From an uncultured Candidatus Saccharibacteria bacterium (GTDB lineage: Bacteria > Patescibacteriota > Saccharimonadia > Saccharimonadales > Saccharimonadaceae): a stretch of 64,000 nucleotides of DNA. Shown one piece after another: positions 1,388 to 49,300 of the stretch. Made by a program: the position numbers and the translations under genes. The notes beneath the pieces were generated by a model. That model ran no database searches and was not told the DNA's origin. It saw nothing but the letters and a program-made list of their open reading frames with translations. Position 1 is the first letter of the stretch. Each line of letters opens with the position of its first letter. The DNA is taken from positions 48,516-112,515 of the forward strand of contig CAUQMT010000003.1 in the NCBI GenBank assembly GCA_963519435.1, given 5' to 3'.

Positions 1388-2158
1388 TTAGTTATCCCAA
1401 CGATCTTTAACCTCAGCAAGCAACTCATCTACTCGATGTACTGCACCGTCGCCTGAATAGACACCCTCCTTTCTCTTGTCTACACCCTCATCTTTATTTA
1501 CATAAATAGTCCAGCTCAGATCACCCCTACATTTCTTACCTGGAGGGTATTCAAAAGGTTCAACGCGCCCGTTTTCGTCGGAATCCCAGGAGTAATAAAT
1601 TCTACTAACGCTAGCGTCATCGCTTCCTACAAATTTTATAGCCTTATCAGGATCGATCTTACCGTCCTTTGTTTTTATATCCCTCAATACTGAACTATCC
1701 TCTGAGCTAAAAGTAGCACATAAATATGAACTATGATCAGCTTTGCCATATTTAGGATTTCTTTCTTCTCGTAAACATAGTTCAACACTCATTCCCTCAT
1801 CTCTATTATAATCCGCAGTTTCACCGACACCAGTCCCTGATGTATTGCCAGCTGGCATTCCAGCAGCTACATCAATACGAAGTGATCTGCCGTCGCCAGT
1901 TGTATAAGAATCGCCCTCTCTAGAACCGTCTTCTCTAATTTCTTCAGCCTTATTCAAAACGACTGCACGCACGTTATCTGTCATATCGCGCATTTGTTCA
2001 TCGCTCATCGCGGGCTTATGTGCTTCATGACAGAGACCAAAAGCTACCGCAACAGATAGAGCAAGAGCACCTAGTTCCCTCACACGGCGTTTCCACTTTT
2101 CCCCTCTGCCAGGCCGTTCAGTGCCTGCGGTAGAGCTAAACTCTCTAGTTTTACCCAT
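1388..2158 (-). CDS. Hypothetical protein with N-terminal membrane anchor
   Basis: 256-aa ORF; hydrophobic LGALALSVAVAFGL; upstream TTGACA-17-TATAAA promoter. Confidence 0.7.
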   Translation of the reverse strand: MGKTREFSSTAGTERPGRGEKWKRRVRELGALALSVAVAFGLCHEAHKPAMSDEQMRDMTDNVRAVVLNKAEEIREDGSREGDSYTTGDGRSLRIDVAAGMPAGNTSGTGVGETADYNRDEGMSVELCLREERNPKYGKADHSSYLCATFSSEDSSVLRDIKTKDGKIDPDKAIKFVGSDDASVSRIYYSWDSDENGRVEPFEYPPGKKCRGDLSWTIYVNKDEGVDKRKEGVYSGDGAVHRVDELLAEVKDRWDN

Positions 2159-2356
2159 ATATTTATCGTAGCCTTTCTACCTACAGACAGTTATGATGTA
2201 AATAACCTGGTGATTTATACTCCATATTTGATAATTTGTCAAGTATATCTCCGCACTTATTTAGTCATTGCAATCATTGGATACTTTACCAGAAGATTAT
2301 AATACTTTTACCACCTAATTTTGCAGCCCAAATCAAAATTGTGCTATGATGCTAGA

Positions 2357-3172
2357 ATGCATGTCGCAATCCAAGGCCAAGCCGGTTCCTTCCACGACCA
2401 GGCTGCCCACCAATGGTACGGCGCTAGCGCCGAAATAGTCCCCTGCACAACGTTTAGCGAAGTCTTTGCGGCCTACAACGAGGGCAGTGCCGACGCTATC
2501 GTCGCAGCGGTCGAAAATACTTTGTTTGGCAGCATTAACGAAGTTTACCGTTATATCGAGGAATGTAGTGCGCCGATCGTCGGCGAAATCAAGCTGCCTG
2601 TCGAGCAAATGCTAATCGGTCTGCCAAACGCCAAAATCAGCGATATTACTGAGGTTTATTCTCACCCAGTAGCTCTTTCTCAATGCCGCTATTTCTTGCA
2701 GGAACATCTACCGCAGGCAACACCTATTGAATTTTTTGATACCGCTGGCGCCGTCGAATTTATCAAGCAAAACGGCTCCCGGCACTGCGCCGCTATCGCC
2801 AGCCAGACTGCCGCCGAATTATATAATTTGCCAATACTACAGCGTTCCATCCACGACAATCCCGATAATATCACCCGCTTTTTGGTAATTGAACCGTCTA
2901 ATGCGCCCGCTGATGCTAATCGTGCTTCTCTGGTCATCACCACCGACCATCAGCCTGGCGCTCTCGTCGAGGTATTACAGATATTCGCCAAGCGCCGTAT
3001 CAATCTCGCTAAATTACAGTCGCAACCAATCGTCGGCCAGCCCTGGAAGTATAAGTTTTTTATTGTCGTCGACTGCGCTGGACAACCGCTACATCAAGCT
3101 ATTCGCGACATCGAACGCAGCAACCACGAGGTTACTATCCTAGGTGAATACAAATCTAGTGCCAGCGATTAG
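2357..3172 (+). CDS. pheA: Prephenate dehydratase with ACT domain
   Basis: AIQGQAGSF, ENTLFGSI, VYSHPVALSQC, NITRFLVI, INLAKLQSQP; ATG 2357 follows TGnTATGAT. Confidence 0.9.
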   Translation: MHVAIQGQAGSFHDQAAHQWYGASAEIVPCTTFSEVFAAYNEGSADAIVAAVENTLFGSINEVYRYIEECSAPIVGEIKLPVEQMLIGLPNAKISDITEVYSHPVALSQCRYFLQEHLPQATPIEFFDTAGAVEFIKQNGSRHCAAIASQTAAELYNLPILQRSIHDNPDNITRFLVIEPSNAPADANRASLVITTDHQPGALVEVLQIFAKRRINLAKLQSQPIVGQPWKYKFFIVVDCAGQPLHQAIRDIERSNHEVTILGEYKSSASD

Positions 3173-3223
3173 CAAATTTTAATTTCACAAAGATGAATAA
3201 GCCACAGGCAGATGTTTATATTT

Positions 3224-5470
3224 TTACATGTCTAGATCATCGACGCTGGATATCAATACGTCGCGCGGTTTTGAACCGTTCGCAGCGCTAATAATACCCC
3301 GCTCTTCCATTTCCTCGATAATCCGCGCCGCTCGTTGATAGCCAATTCCCAGGCGAGTCTGCAGCATGCTTGTAGACGCTTTTTTGCGCTCAATAACCAC
3401 GCGTACCGCATCTTTAAACTTATCATCGCTACCATTACTACCGAAGTCCATCACCACGCCGCCTTTACCGTTCAATTGCACTGGCTGGCTAACGATTTCA
3501 TCATTGTACTGCGGCGGCGCCTGCATCCGCAGCTGATCAGTAATTTTGTTCACCTCGCTATCCATCACCCAAGCGCCCTGAATACGCTTCGGTTTCGGCA
3601 TGCTAGCAGTTTTGATCAGCATATCTCCCTGGCCCAGCAATTTCTCGGCACCAGCCTGGTCGAGAATTGTCTGGCTGTCAGTCTGACTGGCCACCGTAAA
3701 GGCAATCCGCGCTGGTACGTTTGCCTTGATGAGTCCGGTAATCACATCAACGCTCGGACGCTGCGTCGCTAGCACCAGGTGAATGCCAACCGCCCGCGCC
3801 TTCTGCGCCAAACGAACAATTAAGCCCTCGACATCGCGCTTGGCTACCATCATCAGATCAGCCATCTCGTCAATCACAATCACGATATACGGCATTGTAC
3901 CTTCATCAACTTGCTGTACATTACCCTTTTCATCGGCAACGCCAATTTTCTTGCCTTTTGCTTTAGAGCGTTCATTATAAGTTTTGATATCGCGTACTCG
4001 CTCTTCGGCTAGCAAGCTATAACGACGTTCCATCTCGTTAACCGCCCACTTTAGCGCGCTCATTGTCTTCTCCGGCTCGACAATCACCGGCGTCAACAGG
4101 TGTGGAATATCCTGATACGGCGCCATCTCGACCTGCTTCGGATCGACAAGGATTAATTTCATATCGCTCGGCGCGTTGCGGTAAAGCAAACTACTTAGCA
4201 GCGTATTAATCATCACCGATTTACCAGAGCCTGTCTGTCCGGCGACCAGCAAGTGCGGCATTTTGTTAAGTTCGCCGACAAACGGCAGTCCTGAAATGTC
4301 TTTACCAATCGCAAAACTCAGCGGCTCTTTGCGGCGGCGCCATTCAGCGCTTTCTAAAATTGAACGGATACGTACGTCAGCCGCTTTCTTGTTTGGCACT
4401 TCGATACCGACAGCTTTTTTACCTGGAATCGGCGCTTCCATGCGCAAGCTCGACGCCGCCAAATTCAGCGCAATATTGGTTTCTAGCGCTGTAATTTTAC
4501 TCAGCTTGATGCCCGCCGGCGGACGCAGCGTATACTGAGTCACTTTCGGGCCGATATTGGCGCCTTCCATATCGACATTAATGTTAAATTCACGCAAAGT
4601 GTCTTGGATAATGCGCGCGTTCTGCTTGATATCGCCCGCATCAGCTGGCGCTTCCTTCTTTTCTAGCAAATCAAGGCTCGGAAATTGCCAGTTCGGGTCG
4701 CTAACTGCCAGCATCGCCATTTTGTCGTCGCGATCGGCTTCGGCTTTTTTAGCTTGCGGTTTGATTTTAAGCTTCGCACTTTGCTTGCTGTCATCTTGCG
4801 ATACTGTTGGCACGCCTTCGTTAAGCTTGAAATCGTCCATCTTGCCGTGATCATCTTCGGCAGCTTTGCGCATGACCTGGACATTAGCTTCGTTCTCTGC
4901 CTTTTCATTGCTGGCTACTGCCGTCTTGAACATTGCTGCAATATCGCTAAACCGCAGTTGCAACACAAACAATAGCGTAATCGCAATCAGCAAAATATAA
5001 ATAAAAACACCGACTGGTATATTGACCAGCGACAAGACGACCGAGTTCAAACCATCGCCAACAACACCGCCAGTCGACGGCGCACCCTTTTCGCGAAACA
5101 GCCCGAATAAGCCGCTGAACCAAATAACTATCAAGATTGAGGCAAATTTCATGACTGCCGGCAATCGGTTGTTTTCGGCGCCAAATATTCTAACAGCTAC
5201 ATACAAACCGACAACTGGCACTATATAAACCGCCCAGCCAATCGTTCGCTTAGACACTTCTAGCATTTGATTAAGTAATGGACCACCCGCACCGAACCAC
5301 GATACTACCAGCAAAACCGACAGCGCCATCAACAATACTGCTGCAACTTGTGGCCAAAATCCCGACGGCACTTCGTGCTGTGGCGCCGGCACTTTCGCTG
5401 TCTTGCTAGCACGGGCCGCGCGGGTTGTTTTAGTTGTTTTTCGAGTTCTCGTCGTCTTTTTCTTTGCCAT
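3224..5470 (-). CDS. ftsK: DNA translocase FtsK/SpoIIIE
   Basis: 4 TM N-terminus; PHLLVAGQTGSGKS; LILVDPKQVE; gamma domain ASTSMLQTRLGIGYQRAARII. Confidence 0.97.
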   Translation of the reverse strand: MAKKKTTRTRKTTKTTRAARASKTAKVPAPQHEVPSGFWPQVAAVLLMALSVLLVVSWFGAGGPLLNQMLEVSKRTIGWAVYIVPVVGLYVAVRIFGAENNRLPAVMKFASILIVIWFSGLFGLFREKGAPSTGGVVGDGLNSVVLSLVNIPVGVFIYILLIAITLLFVLQLRFSDIAAMFKTAVASNEKAENEANVQVMRKAAEDDHGKMDDFKLNEGVPTVSQDDSKQSAKLKIKPQAKKAEADRDDKMAMLAVSDPNWQFPSLDLLEKKEAPADAGDIKQNARIIQDTLREFNINVDMEGANIGPKVTQYTLRPPAGIKLSKITALETNIALNLAASSLRMEAPIPGKKAVGIEVPNKKAADVRIRSILESAEWRRRKEPLSFAIGKDISGLPFVGELNKMPHLLVAGQTGSGKSVMINTLLSSLLYRNAPSDMKLILVDPKQVEMAPYQDIPHLLTPVIVEPEKTMSALKWAVNEMERRYSLLAEERVRDIKTYNERSKAKGKKIGVADEKGNVQQVDEGTMPYIVIVIDEMADLMMVAKRDVEGLIVRLAQKARAVGIHLVLATQRPSVDVITGLIKANVPARIAFTVASQTDSQTILDQAGAEKLLGQGDMLIKTASMPKPKRIQGAWVMDSEVNKITDQLRMQAPPQYNDEIVSQPVQLNGKGGVVMDFGSNGSDDKFKDAVRVVIERKKASTSMLQTRLGIGYQRAARIIEEMEERGIISAANGSKPRDVLISSVDDLDM

Positions 5471-5558: not shown

Positions 5559-7676
5559 TTAGTACGAGCGGCTGTCTGAGCGGTCGCGCGGCACCACCGT
5601 ATCGGTATCGGGAGTTTGTTTGCGCGGAAAGCGTTTGCCCGACGGCTGCGGCATCAGCGGCTGGCTCGACGTTTTGGCTTGCGACGTACGCGCGTGTGCC
5701 TTCAATGCTCCGCCGACCTCATTGACCACCGGAATAACAATCGGCGTCCGGTGCGTTTGGTCGTACAAAATATGCGTTACTTCGTCTTTGATTTCTTTTT
5801 TAATCACCTCGATGTCGTATTTGCCAGAGAAACTGCGCGCCGCTTTCTGCTTGAGATATTGGCGAATCATTCCCATTAGCTCTTCATTATCGCGCATGTA
5901 AATAAACCCGCGGCTGATAATGTCTGGACTGGTCAAGAGCCGCCCCGTACCGCGCTGAACCGTCAATATGACTATAAATATACCTTCTTGACTCATGTGG
6001 ATACGGTCTTTGAGCACCACTTCGCTGACTACCGCGCCGGCATCATCATACATCGTACCGCCAGAGTGAACAATGCGGCCAATTTTGTGCGCGCCATCGC
6101 TAGTAAACTCAACTATATCGCCCGGATCACAAACAAATATATTTTGCCGCGGAATACCGCATTCTTTCTCGGCCAAGCGTGCATTGTGTACTAACATATG
6201 AAACTCGCCGTGATTAGGCAGATAATACTTCGGTTTAACCGCATTAATCACCCGCACGTGGTCATCGTAATAGCCGTGACCCGATAGGTGCAGCGGCCCG
6301 ATACCAGTTAGGTGTGTTTTGCCATTTTGAATAATCTCGCCGCCCTCGCGCATCAGGCCATCAACTGTCCGCACTACGTATTTTTCATTGCCAGGGATCG
6401 GGTTCGAGCTCAGCACTACCACATCTGAACCCTTAATTTTAACGTATTTGTGCGCCCCTGTCGCCATCCGGTTAAGCACCGCATTGAACTCGCCTTGGCT
6501 ACCAGTACAGACGATTGTTATCTTGTTATCAGGCAATTTAATCAAATCTTCCATCTTAACGACGGTATCTTTCGGTACTTTAATCACGCCCGAACGCAAC
6601 GCCACCTCTAGGTTCTGAATCATACTAAAGCCAGCGAACGCCACTTTGCGGTCGTGCTTTTTCGCTTCCTCGAGAAGTAGCTGAATTCGATGCAACTGGC
6701 TAGAAAAGCTACTGACAATAATCCGGCTCTTCGACCATTTATCCATCACTTCGCCCATACTGTGCTGAATGTCGAATTCACCGTGTGTATGGGTACCGTC
6801 GCTTTCACAGTTAGTCGACTCGTTCATAAACAGCAAGAAGCCTTCTTTCTCGGCGATTTCGCTAATCCGATTAAAATCGAATTTCTTGCCATCAACCGGA
6901 TTTTCTTCAATGCGCCAGTCGCCGCTCGAGAGGATATTACCAACTGGCGTCCGCACCACTACGGCAGCTGCATCTGGAATCGAGTGATTAACGCGTACCA
7001 GCTCAACGCTAAATGAATCACAAAGTTGTACAGTATCATGATTTTCTGGATTTAATTCGTGGTATTCTGGCGTGAAAGCGCCGTCTGTCTCTTCCATCGT
7101 CCGCTGTAGCATGCCAAGCGTGAACTTCGTGCCATAAACTGGTGCTGGCAATTTCGGGATGATATGCCGAAATGCGCCAATGTGGTCGAGATGGCCGTGC
7201 GTAAAGACGTGCGCTCGAATCCGATGCTTATTTTCTTCCAGCCACTGAGTATCAGGAATTATATAATTTATACCCGGATAATCGCTACCTGGAAACAAAA
7301 AACCCATATCAATGACGATGATATCGTTGTCGTATTCAATCGCCGTCATGTTCTTACCAATACCCATCTCGCCAACACCGCCAATCGGAATCACCTTCAG
7401 TGTTGGCCGCGGCGCCCGCGGACGTTTCGGCTGGTCCTTCAAGCTAAATTGCTTGCCGCCATAGCCGTTATAAACCGATTTGTTAACCGGCACGCTGATT
7501 AGGTGCTGGCTAGCCTGCGCATTCACACCTTCTGACATTCGCCGCTGCGCCCGAAAGACTTCGCCTTTGCGCGTAGTTGTCGCGTTCAGCACTGTATTAG
7601 TTGATTTTTGTTTAGCCTGCAAAGGGCGCTTACTCGTGTCATCGCCTTTTGGGTTTGCCAGTCGCCGCTGACCCAT
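5559..7676 (-). CDS. rnj: Ribonuclease J
   Basis: THGHLDHIG, VNHSIPD, CTGSQGE, HLSGH, PNHGE metallo-beta-lactamase/beta-CASP motifs. Confidence 0.95.
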   Translation of the reverse strand: MGQRRLANPKGDDTSKRPLQAKQKSTNTVLNATTTRKGEVFRAQRRMSEGVNAQASQHLISVPVNKSVYNGYGGKQFSLKDQPKRPRAPRPTLKVIPIGGVGEMGIGKNMTAIEYDNDIIVIDMGFLFPGSDYPGINYIIPDTQWLEENKHRIRAHVFTHGHLDHIGAFRHIIPKLPAPVYGTKFTLGMLQRTMEETDGAFTPEYHELNPENHDTVQLCDSFSVELVRVNHSIPDAAAVVVRTPVGNILSSGDWRIEENPVDGKKFDFNRISEIAEKEGFLLFMNESTNCESDGTHTHGEFDIQHSMGEVMDKWSKSRIIVSSFSSQLHRIQLLLEEAKKHDRKVAFAGFSMIQNLEVALRSGVIKVPKDTVVKMEDLIKLPDNKITIVCTGSQGEFNAVLNRMATGAHKYVKIKGSDVVVLSSNPIPGNEKYVVRTVDGLMREGGEIIQNGKTHLTGIGPLHLSGHGYYDDHVRVINAVKPKYYLPNHGEFHMLVHNARLAEKECGIPRQNIFVCDPGDIVEFTSDGAHKIGRIVHSGGTMYDDAGAVVSEVVLKDRIHMSQEGIFIVILTVQRGTGRLLTSPDIISRGFIYMRDNEELMGMIRQYLKQKAARSFSGKYDIEVIKKEIKDEVTHILYDQTHRTPIVIPVVNEVGGALKAHARTSQAKTSSQPLMPQPSGKRFPRKQTPDTDTVVPRDRSDSRSY

Positions 7677-45406: not shown

Positions 45407-45580
45407 CTATTGACAGCCCTCGCACATAGTTAGTGTTGCTGGATCAATTGGCGCTGATGGTAGGCCGTCAGCTTCAGCTTTTTGATCGGCTTCAGCCTGT
45501 GCTTTGGCTATCTCGCGTTCAATCGCCTCGAGTTTTTCCTCGAGCGTCATGTCGTCGTTAATTATCGCTGATGGATTCAT
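45407..45580 (-). CDS. 57-aa protein ending in CxxC, resembling a detached NrdA C-terminal redox tail (not in ORF track)
   Basis: MNPSAIINDDMTLEEKLEAIEREIAKAQAEADQKAEADGLPSAPIDPATLTMCEGCQ; SD AAGGGGG; TATAAT at 45604-45609. Confidence 0.85.
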   Translation of the reverse strand: MNPSAIINDDMTLEEKLEAIEREIAKAQAEADQKAEADGLPSAPIDPATLTMCEGCQ

Positions 45581-45643
45581 TATTTCCCCCTTTGCTTATA
45601 TTCATTATAGGCTAATAGACCGCTTATTCAATTGCTAAAACTG

Positions 45644-46642
45644 TTACTTTACGGTGTTAACTTCATAGTTCGTATTGGTGCTTTCAAAGAAATTGACTAA
45701 TTCAAGCGTATCGTTGGCCGCCGCCATCCACTTGGCTGGGTTAGCTACGTTATATTCTTTCTCGAAGCCTAATTCTTCTAGGCGGCGGTCAGTCATGAAC
45801 TTGACATACTGGTTCACGTAATCCGCGTTCAAGCCCAAGATACCCTTTGGCAGCATGTCTTTGTTGTAAGCCTCCTCAAGCGCTACCGCCTGCAAAATCA
45901 GATCGCGAATCTCGTCGGCGAATTCTTGCGTCTGCAAATCTGGATTCTCGTCAAGAATTGTCAACAGCAGGTTAATACCGAAAGTTAAATGCAGATTTTC
46001 ATCCTTGGTAATCCAATCTAGCAAACTACCGACATTACGCAGCAAATTGCGCCGACGGAAACTCATACCAACCATAAAACCGCTATAAAACCAAATACCT
46101 TCGAGTACAATATTATAAGCTACCAGATTGCGCACGAAATCTTTTTTGCCTTCGGTAGTGGTAACATCTAATTTGTCATTCAGCATACGGCCAACATATT
46201 TCGTCTGAAAATCTGATTTGTCTTTCAAGCTCTTTTTGCCATAGCCGGCTGCGTAAATTTCTTGGCGGTCAAACGGAAACGTTTCAATAATGTATTCAAA
46301 GGTCATAAAGTGGTTAGCTTCTTCCCACATCTGTTTCGATAGATACAAGTGCGCCTCGGCGGCATTGACGTATGGATAAATACCAAAAGCTAACGACTTA
46401 TTGATAAGTAATTCGTTTGGGTTTAAGTAACTAATCACCGTTTTCAGCGCATGTTTTTCGTCGTCGGTCAGCTTCTCGAACGCCGCCAAATCTTGCACTA
46501 GTTGTACTTCATTCGGGAACCAAGTGTTAGCAACTGCCTGATTATACAAATCCATCGCCCATTGGTAGCGTACTGGCTTGAGTTGCAAGCCGTCGCGCAG
46601 GCCTGATCCCAAAATACCTTGCGGTTGTGTTGTTTGCGTCAT
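45644..46642 (-). CDS. nrdB: Ribonucleotide reductase small subunit, class Ic-like
   Basis: NTWFPNEV; PNELL; EEANHFMTF; EGIWFYSGF; DENLH; NFFE...Y. Confidence 0.93.
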   Translation of the reverse strand: MTQTTQPQGILGSGLRDGLQLKPVRYQWAMDLYNQAVANTWFPNEVQLVQDLAAFEKLTDDEKHALKTVISYLNPNELLINKSLAFGIYPYVNAAEAHLYLSKQMWEEANHFMTFEYIIETFPFDRQEIYAAGYGKKSLKDKSDFQTKYVGRMLNDKLDVTTTEGKKDFVRNLVAYNIVLEGIWFYSGFMVGMSFRRRNLLRNVGSLLDWITKDENLHLTFGINLLLTILDENPDLQTQEFADEIRDLILQAVALEEAYNKDMLPKGILGLNADYVNQYVKFMTDRRLEELGFEKEYNVANPAKWMAAANDTLELVNFFESTNTNYEVNTVK

Positions 46643-46675
46643 ATTTCCTCCTTATTATTGTGATTTTAGCAACGT

Positions 46676-49084
46676 TTATGATAGTTTGCGTCGAGCAAAG
46701 CCAAAACCGCTTACCCTTTTCGCACTGTCGGTACGAACTTTCTGTACCGATTGCGATGTGACGGTGGTTTGCTCGGATTGATGGCGCGGCTTGACATGCA
46801 GATAATATGTCGTTTTCAAACCGCGGCGCCACGCTTCTGAATAGATTTCGATATATTCATCAATATCGCGCGACTCCAGGTACATATTGCGGCTAATTGC
46901 TTGGTCAACCCATTTTTGCGCTCGCGCCGCTACCTCGATAAAGGCGTACGGGCTCAGCTGAAAACTAGTTTTGTAGACGTCGCGGACTGCCTGCGGAATT
47001 TGCTCAAAACCTTGGATATCGCCCTGATTCGCCAGCAAGTCGTCTTTGAGCGATTCCCACAGATTAAGTTGTTTGAGTTTACGCACCAAATTAGCATTAA
47101 CCTCTAGGAATTTGCCGTTAAGCGTACTACGGCTAAAAATTTGGCTAAACTGCGGATCAAGTCCCGGCGTCGTACCTACCACATGCGAAATATTAGCTGT
47201 CGGTGCAATCGCCATCAAAGTTGCGTTACGCATACCTTTTTTGACTTTTTGGCGCAGCACTTCCCAATCCAGGCGCGATTTACTATCAATTTTTACCTTA
47301 ACGCCACGCTCTGTTGTAAGTTTATCAACGGTATCGATAGACAGCAAGCCTTTGCTCCAGCCGCTGCCAGCAAAGTTCGGATAGCTGCCGCGCTCAGCTG
47401 CTAGGTTAGCCGATTCATCAATGGCATGGTAGCTGATAAACTCAGTTAGCTGATCAACCAGATCGTAGGCAGCCTCGCTTTCGTAACTAATCTCTAGCTT
47501 CTCCAAAACATCCGATAACCCCATATAGCCGAGCCCAAGCGCCCGATTCTGCTCATTACTATGCATAGCTTCGGCAACTGGCGTGTTCGTAATGTCAATC
47601 AAGTTATCTAACTGGCGCGTAGCGGAGCGTACTGATACCGCCAAGCGGTCCCAATCCCAGGTCTTATCAGCATTGAGAAAAGCCGACAAATTCATGCTAA
47701 CCAGATTACAGGTCGCAATATTATGTTCGTCCTCGGGCAAAGTTATTTCGGTGCACAAATTACTGAGGTGGATTGTCCCAGTATTATTGTTGAGCGCTCG
47801 CAAATTGATGGCATCCTTCCAGGTTAGCCAAGGGTGTCCAGTCGCTTGCAAACTACTGAGAATCTGGCGGAATTGCTGGCGCGCTGGCACGACTTCGAAG
47901 CGGTTAATTTTACCAGCTTCTGCTAGCTTGATATATTCCTGGTAGCGGCGGCTAAATGCTTCTCCGTATAGTTCGTTTAAGTCGCCGACTTCAGCCGGAT
48001 CAAACAAATACCAATCCTGCTCGTCTTGGACGCGCTTCATAAACTCGTCCGAGATAAACACCGCCGTATCTAGAAACCGCGTCCGCAAATACGGATCGCC
48101 CGAATTCTGGCGCAAATCGAGGAATTGCGAAAAATTAAGGTGCCAGTTCTCCATATACGCCGCTGCCGCACCCGCTTTCTTGCCCTTGCGCGACACCGCA
48201 AACAGCGCCGTATCGATCATTTTCATGAACGGAATTGGACCAGTTGACTCGGTATTGGTGGTTTTGACAGGACTACCAGCAGCACGCAATTTATTCATAC
48301 TAATGCCGATACCGCCAGTACCTTTAGCGATGAACATGGTGTCGCGAATGCTTTTGGCTATCGAAGCCATGTCATCTTGAACCTCCATGACAAAACAGTT
48401 GCTTAGCTGCGGAAACGAACCGCCAGCGTTAACCCGCGTGCTACCGCCCGGACTGTATTCCAGATTAGCCATGTGGCGGTAAAATTTTATCGCCGCCTCG
48501 GTCGGATTGACTTCGTTAAAACTCAAACCCATAGCAATACGCATGTTAGTGAATTGCGGCACCTCGATCGGATCGCCGCTTTGGCGCCGCAGCGCGTAAC
48601 GATTGCGGTTGGTCACTACACCGAGATACTTACTGAGCGAGTCCTTGCTCGGATCGAGCGCCGCCGCCAGCTTCTTGAGGTTAAATAGCTGCGAATCAGC
48701 CATTCGCTTATCTAGTAGACCCTCTTTAGCGGCTTGGCGAATATAGATGGGAAACTTCTGCGCATGTAACTTTTTAAGCTCGATTTCGTTAGTATAATCG
48801 CCGAGCACTTGCTGGTATATAGTTCGCAGCAGCAACCGCGCCGCAATCGTATCGAAATCCGGGTCGTCTTTGACATTTTGGACTGCCGTCTGGATAAGCC
48901 CTTCATCAAGCTGCTCGGTAGTAATGCCATCAAACAGCGTCAACTGCAATTCGGCCGCTATTTGTGCCACTTTCGCAATTTGGCCTGGCAAGCCTTCGCT
49001 AGCTGCCAGCAGAGTTAAATTAATTTTGTTAGCGTCAAACGGCTGCTGGCTACCGTCGCGCTTCACAACTGTAATATCTGCCAT
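46676..49084 (-). CDS. nrdA: Ribonucleotide reductase large subunit with ATP cone, lacking C-terminal cysteines
   Basis: VVKRDG; LSNCF; SNLCTEI; CNLVS; AIAPTA; GLKTTYYL; ends ...GFGFARRKLS. Confidence 0.97.
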   Translation of the reverse strand: MADITVVKRDGSQQPFDANKINLTLLAASEGLPGQIAKVAQIAAELQLTLFDGITTEQLDEGLIQTAVQNVKDDPDFDTIAARLLLRTIYQQVLGDYTNEIELKKLHAQKFPIYIRQAAKEGLLDKRMADSQLFNLKKLAAALDPSKDSLSKYLGVVTNRNRYALRRQSGDPIEVPQFTNMRIAMGLSFNEVNPTEAAIKFYRHMANLEYSPGGSTRVNAGGSFPQLSNCFVMEVQDDMASIAKSIRDTMFIAKGTGGIGISMNKLRAAGSPVKTTNTESTGPIPFMKMIDTALFAVSRKGKKAGAAAAYMENWHLNFSQFLDLRQNSGDPYLRTRFLDTAVFISDEFMKRVQDEQDWYLFDPAEVGDLNELYGEAFSRRYQEYIKLAEAGKINRFEVVPARQQFRQILSSLQATGHPWLTWKDAINLRALNNNTGTIHLSNLCTEITLPEDEHNIATCNLVSMNLSAFLNADKTWDWDRLAVSVRSATRQLDNLIDITNTPVAEAMHSNEQNRALGLGYMGLSDVLEKLEISYESEAAYDLVDQLTEFISYHAIDESANLAAERGSYPNFAGSGWSKGLLSIDTVDKLTTERGVKVKIDSKSRLDWEVLRQKVKKGMRNATLMAIAPTANISHVVGTTPGLDPQFSQIFSRSTLNGKFLEVNANLVRKLKQLNLWESLKDDLLANQGDIQGFEQIPQAVRDVYKTSFQLSPYAFIEVAARAQKWVDQAISRNMYLESRDIDEYIEIYSEAWRRGLKTTYYLHVKPRHQSEQTTVTSQSVQKVRTDSAKRVSGFGFARRKLS

Positions 49085-49191: not shown

Positions 49192-49240
49192 ACTATACAT
49201 ATAGCGTCTGTATATCAAGCATAAACGCTAAATATGGATT
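49192..49240. promoter_or_regulatory. Tandem NrdR-box-like sites upstream of nrdA
   Basis: ACGCTATATGTATAGT (rc of 49192-49207) and ACGCTAAATATGGATT (49225-49240), 33 bp apart. Confidence 0.55.
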
Positions 49241-49300
49241 TTTCAAGCATTTTTGCTAGTAATTTTCACAACTGGTTTGGCCCATGCTATCATGGAAAAT

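Follow-up and report, generated by a model that had tools for sequence, protein, structure and literature searches.

The subject here is a small gene in a ribonucleotide reductase (RNR) locus of an uncultured Candidatus Saccharibacteria bacterium (assembly GCA_963519435.1), the locus being part of a stretch of 64,000 nucleotides of contig CAUQMT010000003.1 (positions 48,516 to 112,515) that in its whole length is referred to as the window. It is likely that this gene of 57 codons specifies the C-terminal redox tail of the class I catalytic subunit NrdA, detached by gene fission in an ancestor of the family and acting in trans. The evolutionary part of this reading is the firmer, as comparison of the sequences makes it highly probable that the small protein is a detached NrdA tail, and the functional part, that it serves as a trans-acting redox shuttle, is probable. 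The genes are co-directional on the minus strand in the order nrdA, nrdB, small gene, with the following features.

45407..45580, minus strand: small gene, 57 amino acids, putative detached NrdA redox tail
45586..45590, minus strand: Shine-Dalgarno-like GGGGG, 5 nucleotides before the ATG of the small gene
45604..45631, minus strand: promoter-like TTGAAT-16-TATAAT in the spacer between nrdB and the small gene, 10/12 consensus matches
45644..46642, minus strand: nrdB, radical-generating subunit, 332 amino acids, PF00268
46676..49084, minus strand: nrdA, class I RNR catalytic subunit, 802 amino acids, with ATP cone, ending GFGFARRKLS
49218..49246, minus strand: promoter-like TTGAAA-17-TATGCT upstream of nrdA, consensus match only

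A catalytic subunit without its redox cysteines

Turnover by class I RNRs is described as leaving an active-site disulfide that is reduced by a pair of cysteines at the C-terminus, the pair being re-reduced by thioredoxin or glutaredoxin (PMC9669993, PMC4078304), and the C-terminal CXXC is given by Burnim et al. for 1737 of 2022 class I sequences (PMC9531940). The NrdA of the window has matches to the Pfam barrel (PF02867, E 1.5e-162) and all-alpha (PF00317, E 2.5e-14) domains, with the ATP cone at residues 5-90, and its motifs include PQLSNCF, SNLCTEI, ATCNL and KTTYYL. Its best match in the Protein Data Bank is 5im3 (E 1.5e-186), and C230, N442, C444, E446, C459, Y760 and Y761 are invariant in an alignment of 23 sequences. 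By homology to E. coli R1 we take C230 and C459 to be the active-site cysteine pair, C444 the thiyl cysteine and the two tyrosines the dyad of the radical path. The initial annotation, made from the letters of the window, had proposed that ATP cone, active-site cysteines and YY dyad are all kept, and the Pfam matches together with the reading of SNCF, SNLCTE, ATCNL and TTYY bear this out. It had also proposed that cysteine is lacking after TTYY, and this is what is found: the 45 residues counted from TTYY include none, and a C-terminal redox pair in the same chain is absent, the end being ...RVSGFGFARRKLS.

The match to the NCBIfam model NF005101 (1262.6 bits, cut-off 988) covers positions 3-790 of the 822 in the profile, whose end has no match in this NrdA. 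Near-identical NrdA proteins carry the source names Candidatus Nanosynbacter or Minimicrobia (Saccharibacteria/TM7). The basic K/R-GFG motif near the end of NrdA occurs in fused relatives as well, and so the basic end is no special adaptation of the split form.

The small gene and its product

The small protein (MNPSAIINDDMTLEEKLEAIEREIAKAQAEADQKAEADGLPSAPIDPATLTMCEGCQ) has a net charge of -9. It consists of D-x-M-T-L-E-E-K-L-x-A-I at residues 9-20, a variable helix and a P-x-D-P-x5-C-x-G-C-Q end, the C-terminus being DPATLTMCEGCQ (...PIDPATLTMCEGCQ) with MCEGCQ as the last residues and C53 and C56 as the cysteine pair. That the open reading frame (ORF) 45580-45407 has its own Shine-Dalgarno sequence, as had been proposed, stands, with GGGGG 5 nucleotides ahead of the ATG, and purine-rich runs are at the equivalent position in 13 of the 13 loci where the small gene is adjacent to nrdA. 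The -10 element also attributed to it fares less clearly: TTGAAT-16-TATAAT is the top promoter-like site in the 4.2 kb scanned, with 10 of 12 consensus positions, but the total of 8 sites is at chance level (7.0 +/- 2.7 in shuffles).

The small ORF is open in 25 of the 25 genomes of the genus, with 54-100% identity, and eight genomes in which the protein is identical vary in 10 nucleotide columns, every one a third codon position, without a single non-synonymous change. This presence throughout the genus, together with the third-position-only variation, makes it more than a chance ORF. Over 24 orthologues the ratio of non-synonymous to synonymous polymorphism (pN/pS) is 0.26 over residues 1-22, rises to 0.53 in residues 23-42 and drops to 0.13 in residues 43-57; the small ORF is under purifying selection. 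A scan of genomes from the other families of the order was positive in 0 of 16; in 15 of these 16 the only RNR is about 25% identical and has an open frame of 902-983 amino acids.

Searches of Pfam, NCBIfam and PHROG gave no match to the small protein, nor was there one to the thioredoxin-fold models PF00085 and PF00462 at E <= 0.1. AlphaFold2, given an alignment of 98 rows, predicts a helix from residue 13 to 38 and a short end, with the cysteine pair at its extreme (mean predicted local distance difference test score, pLDDT, 87.6). When a genus-level profile was compared with 1.84 billion representative proteins, 132 matches were obtained at E <= 0.001, none of them an NrdA. One hundred are shorter than 100 amino acids and end in C-x-x-C-x (CEGCQ in 37, CDGCE in 15 and CDGCQ in 7); the remaining 32 are chiefly truncated or frame-shifted versions, three being long repetitive proteins. 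Only the two cysteines are invariant over 98 aligned members, with L13, K16, L17, I20, D46 and P47 conserved in at least 90%, and 97 of the 98 are net acidic (median charge -6). The exact small protein is recorded in several public sources, and the sole name among the cluster members checked is 'hypothetical protein'. Two proteins of 400-419 amino acids in the small-protein clusters, P0270 and P0297, were considered as fusions and rejected as unrelated.

Several loci have peculiarities of their own. In a subgroup of the genus, L020-L025 (for example L020:4311-4538, minus strand), the small protein has 76-79 amino acids and is extended at its N-terminus by about 20 low-complexity residues rich in Thr and Gln, the start codon being uncertain. 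In some relatives a PNPOx-like ORF of the FMN-binding family PF01243 (E 2.4e-7) lies between nrdB and the small gene, as at L027:4548-4994 (minus strand), with similar ORFs of 143-148 amino acids in L020-L025. At L014:4426-4530, past the nrdA stop codon and ahead of the small gene, the same frame gives a Cys-rich ...NNCTCTCDCCKDCKSC... from a CTGC-rich repeat, which may be chance.

Correspondence with the tails of fused NrdAs

Of 401 genomes of the phylum searched with the 98-row profile of the small protein, 13 gave a match, strong in eight and weak in five. All eight strong matches are within the source family, in the source genome and seven of the 11 other family genomes sampled. Three of the weak ones, G278, G439 and G059, fall within long ORFs for NrdA, on their final 20-30 residues (E 4.7e-5 to 2.6e-4); the other two, G235 and G188, involve the helical part only of unrelated ORFs and were set aside as spurious.

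The three fused NrdAs end in VPVDPQEKFLCESCQ (G278), CPVDPQERLQCDSCQ (G439) and CPVDPQERLNCESCQ (G059), with nrdB next in each case. They share TTYYLHMKPRH...KVNK...GKKGFG with the NrdA of the window and then continue for 40-50 further residues, so that from TTYY their tails are 88-96 residues long as against 45 in the window. Their C-termini correspond to the end of the small protein, where D-P, five residues, C-x-x-C and one last residue are found at the C-terminus: the ends compared, DPQEKFLCESCQ (G278), DPQERLQCDSCQ (G439) and DPQERLNCESCQ (G059), have the pattern VDPQE..C.SCQ. DP-x5-C is present in 86 of the 98 small proteins, and the spacing DP-x5-C-x2-C-x equals that of the three fused NrdAs.

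Distribution of the two genes

A search of the same 401 genomes with the last 141 residues of NrdA found 48 NrdAs. In eight of the eight from the source family, 44-48 residues follow TTYY without a cysteine, and the genomes concerned are exactly those with the small gene; the four sampled family genomes without the small gene are also without this type of NrdA. All 40 NrdAs of the other families of the phylum have a C-x-x-C end, and among those 40 genomes a separate small gene was found in none at E <= 0.001.

A census of 201 genomes of the family gave the small gene in 106, this NrdA type in 103, both in 102 and neither in 94. Wherever both are present (102 of 102) the small gene is downstream of nrdA on the same contig and strand. 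It begins 13-257 nucleotides past the NrdA match in 69, giving the order nrdA, small gene, nrdB, and 1.05-3.1 kb past it in 33, behind nrdB as in the window. In a divergent branch represented by JGI metagenome contigs (L120-L129), nrd genes are directly beside the small gene in 10 of 10, and in the seven that reach upstream the NrdA match runs to about residue 800 of 802 with the small gene directly after it. The co-occurrence of the small gene with NrdAs lacking the cysteines, and not with those bearing CxxC, which the initial annotation had put forward for checking, is thus what the genomes have: 102 with both and 94 with neither against five with one only, and 0 of 40 elsewhere.

A probable fission in place and later relocation

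A tree, rooted at its midpoint, was made from 33 NrdA cores, each 384 residues long; six loci of the genus are among them, and a duplicate tail and two short fragments were excluded. The 14 split NrdAs form one group (100/100), which is nested with the fused NrdAs of G278, G439 and G059 (100/100), and 16 other fused NrdAs stand apart. Inside the split group the loci of the order nrdA, nrdB, small gene are a single subgroup (93/91), and the adjacent order is spread over the rest. With the midpoint root this pattern is in keeping with an in-place fission and a single later move, and it is likely that the order nrdA, tail, nrdB came first, the small gene having later moved behind nrdB as in the window.

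In the 13 loci of the adjacent type the frame of the small ORF relative to nrdA is offset by 0, 1 or 2 in four, four and five loci, respectively, usually with several stop codons between, and a Shine-Dalgarno sequence is always present. The varied offsets, the stop codons and the separate Shine-Dalgarno sequences argue that synthesis of a fused product by read-through or frameshifting is not the rule. In the window nrdB lies between nrdA and the small gene, and so fusion by read-through or frameshifting is impossible there.

NrdB and the genome setting

The best solved relative of NrdB is 1syy (E 3.4e-71), which we take to be the Chlamydia R2. The NrdB stretch 'eeanhfmtfey' aligns with 'eeavhthtfly' of 1syy, Phe on Phe, in a column that is presumably the site of the radical tyrosine, and this is the class Ic-type feature; from its sequence NrdB would be class Ic-like (Mn/Fe type, without tyrosyl radical). 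The C-terminal NYEV of NrdB retains a tyrosine.

Beyond the small gene is pyrG, for CTP synthase (PF06418 and PF00117), and upstream of nrdA there is an ABC transporter pair in divergent orientation. The source genome is an assembly of 0.65 Mb in five contigs, 76% complete, in which the nrdA of the window is the sole PF02867 match and NrdD was not found. In four of five single-contig relatives the tail-less NrdA is likewise the only RNR catalytic subunit (PF02867), without NrdD. The fifth, G019, of the same genus, has its nrdA in pieces and has NrdD (E 2.6e-200); the pieces (L026, G019:C1:46000-55000, 1867-4282) are spread over at least three frames of 266, 351 and 216 amino acids. As the tail-less NrdA is the sole RNR in four of the five closed genomes and in the source genome, the enzyme must work. 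A thioredoxin gene is present in the source genome, and a search of it for a glutaredoxin domain found none.

None of the sequencing runs searched contained half of the words sampled. In the only run recorded as RNA (X11) there is a single contig of 151 bases over 46567-46700 and none over the small ORF; the contigs of the other runs are of uncertain kind.

Copies in phages and related motifs

In a scan of IMG/VR the small protein had homologues in 34 viral records (L151-L184), most of about 40 kb and 13 with direct terminal repeats. In the family genome G559 the small gene is present a second time, at 5737-5964 (plus strand) of L191 (G559:C19:1-9280), a contig of 9.3 kb that also has genes for a tail protein, an integrase, a DnaD-like loader and an endolysin and is a probable phage or prophage. 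One phage record has 67-86% identity to short stretches of a helicase-like gene in 81 of the 201 family genomes, and there are two short near-exact DNA matches between phage and genome, of 24 and 31 nucleotides, outside repeat arrays. The helicase-like similarity and the contig binned with G559 suggest kinship between phages and family, short of a host assignment.

Seven further loci on phage-like contigs (L142-L145 and L148-L150; for example L145:4887-5171, plus strand) encode a glutaredoxin domain protein of about 95 amino acids (PF00462, E 4.4e-15) with a CAPC site and the end ...APVDPSDALACEGCQ; in L145 the fusion is near genes for terminase and SSB. Such a joining of glutaredoxin and tail points to a thiol-disulfide relay and is a hint of a trans-acting redox module. 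Separately, the high-GC (0.60) contigs L138-L140 have, at about 5020-5087 (plus strand) and with an integrase nearby, a possible ORF of 22 codons, MNPTEYEVPVDPADEFACESCQ, that consists of the tail motif and little else.

Weighing the explanations

Several points weigh against the small protein being a detached NrdA tail that acts in trans. Its function in trans is argued from sequence and distribution only, and its N-terminal helix motif is without counterpart in the fused tails. The source genome is only 76% complete, and its thioredoxin reductase-like gene scores 315.5 bits, under the curated cut-off of 343.45. The small gene is alone in G457, G509, G510 and G570 (weak partial match) and an nrdA fragment is alone in G459, these five assemblies being fragmented or incomplete; in the closed genome G019 an intact small ORF is kept beside the broken nrdA, with NrdD present. 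At L141:4809-5099 (plus strand) a candidate ORF that matches in the motif only, ending ...IPIDPADEFACESCQ, is upstream of a class Ib nrdI-nrdE(intein)-nrdF set whose NrdE keeps a CVACEL end. The homologues of L130-L135 are away from nrd genes, amid genes for phage tail lysozyme, RNase H-like exonuclease, HNH, PNKP, CHAP and M23 proteins, and a search of the 34 viral records for PF02867 found it in none, including none of the 18 rated at least 90% complete; the phage homologues could point to a function wider than RNR. The initial annotation had counted homologues lying mainly away from nrd loci among the outcomes that would speak against it, and though such homologues exist, they are a minority and are in mobile elements.

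A different role for the small protein, as an accessory factor that, for instance, serves the class Ic-like NrdB as a metal (Mn/Fe) chaperone or else regulates or inhibits NrdA, with NrdA reduced directly by thioredoxin or a low-molecular-weight thiol, is improbable. It would accord with an NrdB nearest to 1syy and with Phe at the radical-tyrosine position, which makes a heterometal cofactor plausible, and with the capacity of a terminal C-x-x-C to bind metals; carriage of the gene by phages without any RNR, and persistence of the small ORF of G019 despite its broken nrdA, also favor it. Yet the small protein ends in a match, equally spaced, to the redox tails of those fused NrdAs that are nearest, its presence follows the loss of the NrdA cysteine pair and not the type of NrdB (G278, G439 and G059 have a similar nrdB and no small gene), and the fusion of the motif to a glutaredoxin domain in phage-like contigs implies thiol-disulfide chemistry. 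Very little likelihood attaches to the small gene being a decaying, functionless remnant beside a truncated NrdA that works tail-free, given the strong purifying selection with synonymous differences only between close genomes, the retention of the gene in 102 of the 103 family genomes having this NrdA and of both cysteines in about 100 diverged full-length members, the Shine-Dalgarno sequence at every locus read and the acquisition of the gene by phages. A tail-independent route is nevertheless chemically possible, as direct reduction of RNR active sites by dithiols such as dithiothreitol, without the C-terminal cysteines, is described in PMC4078304. It is barely conceivable that the split is an artefact, whether a frameshift or assembly error or the outcome of programmed read-through or frameshifting that in fact yields a fused protein. 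At one locus, L015, just one in-frame TAG and 12 nucleotides part nrdA from the small ORF, but against this are the position of nrdB between the two genes in the window, the occurrence of the split in 102 family genomes in two gene orders, and the 4/4/5 distribution of offsets in the 13 adjacent loci, most with several intervening stop codons. With more than 100 genomes, two orders, varying offsets and a Shine-Dalgarno sequence each time, the frameshift or assembly artefact that the initial annotation had kept in mind as a threat to its proposal is excluded.

Proposed mechanism

If the small protein is the detached tail acting in trans, its flexible end would enter the active site of NrdA after each turnover, and the Cys230-Cys459 disulfide would be reduced by dithiol-disulfide exchange with it. 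Thioredoxin and thioredoxin reductase, whose genes lie elsewhere in the genome, would then return the oxidized peptide to its reduced state. The N-terminal amphipathic helix motif (D9, L13, E14, K16, L17, A19 and I20) may dock on the reductase and so replace the lost covalent tether. As this motif is conserved, under constraint and absent from the fused tails, the simplest reading of its sequence is a docking helix that would restore proximity, though its absence from those tails also makes the role assigned to it a guess. The initial annotation had suggested, as a possibility, that the acidic helix docks on the basic end of NrdA; that end, with its K/R-GFG, is shared by the fused relatives. 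A predicted complex of NrdA and the small protein scored 0.25 against a mark of 0.32, as a single score without controls.

Carriage of the tail gene by phages that have no RNR is understandable chiefly on the view that the peptide works in trans, on an enzyme of the host. It is a tentative possibility, which we hold at rather less than even chances, that Saccharibacteria phages carry the tail gene (about 55 amino acids) or the glutaredoxin-tail fusion, and no RNR, to drive the tail-less NrdA of the host during infection, with the N-terminal helix as the docking handle that enables swapping. If this holds, no auxiliary metabolic gene that acts on RNR would be known that is smaller than the phage-borne tail. 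The phage copies also suggest that a phage can draw on the nucleotide supply of its host by means of a gene shorter than 200 bases.

Comparison with known systems

In the textbook class I RNR there are two subunits, the large one with its own relay tail; here the relay appears to be a third subunit of 57 residues, in a whole family of ultra-small epibiotic bacteria. This explains the 'truncated' look of these NrdAs and adds an unnamed conserved family of small proteins, about 100 clusters at 50% identity, for which Pfam, NCBIfam and PHROG have no model. It would also provide natural material for titrating, mutating and labelling the tail independently of the 800-residue catalytic subunit, with benefit to study of the re-reduction step, which is hard to observe. 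A class I RNR with a detached tail was not found described in the literature searched, subscription journals being outside its coverage.

The canonical fused NrdA tail is a disordered end with a cysteine pair, and the small protein shares the DP-x5-C-x2-C-x of the nearest fused NrdAs. In contrast to a fused tail it is a separate chain, with its own start codon, Shine-Dalgarno sequence and, in the window, promoter-like site, and it has in addition the N-terminal helix motif. Small CxxC proteins encoded with nrd genes and passing electrons to the reductase are described in the form of NrdH, glutaredoxin and the glutaredoxin-NrdB fusion of Facklamia ignava (PMC6187632). NrdH and glutaredoxin are of thioredoxin fold and act as reductants of the NrdA or NrdE tail, whereas the small protein is without such a fold and would seem to be that tail; the two are combined in the phage-like fusions of glutaredoxin and tail. 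For yeast Rnr1 it is said, with reference to Zhang et al. in PNAS in 2007, that the C-terminal CX2C acts between protomers. This is a precedent for a tail that does not act on its own chain, though there it is still a covalent part of the large subunit.

For Aeromonas phage Aeh1 a class I nrdA is described whose product functions in the form of two polypeptides, NrdA-a and NrdA-b (PMC3045599). Here, as distinct from Aeh1, only the tail is detached, and in the window no mobile gene lies between the parts. In Aeh1 it was reportedly a mobile endonuclease gene that brought about the split, which falls within the catalytic subunit.

The closest precedent is NrdJa/NrdJb of Pseudomonas aeruginosa, a split enzyme of class II where, as here, the catalytic chain is without the redox cysteines and a second chain has them. 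Crona et al. state that NrdJb 'mediates efficient reductive dithiol exchange', that both chains are needed in vivo and that, as a split RNR of a free-living organism, the enzyme is unique (PMC4520616), and some of the class II C-termini without cysteines are identified in PMC9669993 as split NrdJ sequences. NrdJa/NrdJb is of class II and B12-dependent, whereas here a class I, Ic-like NrdA has an NrdB partner, and the second chain differs from NrdJb in having 57 amino acids with two cysteines only, no Pfam match and a predicted structure of one long helix and a short end. By analogy the same logic would be at work in a class I enzyme, with the second chain pared to helix and tail. With the small gene the locus is a new form of split RNR, and the tail-only copies in phages are the more novel lead.

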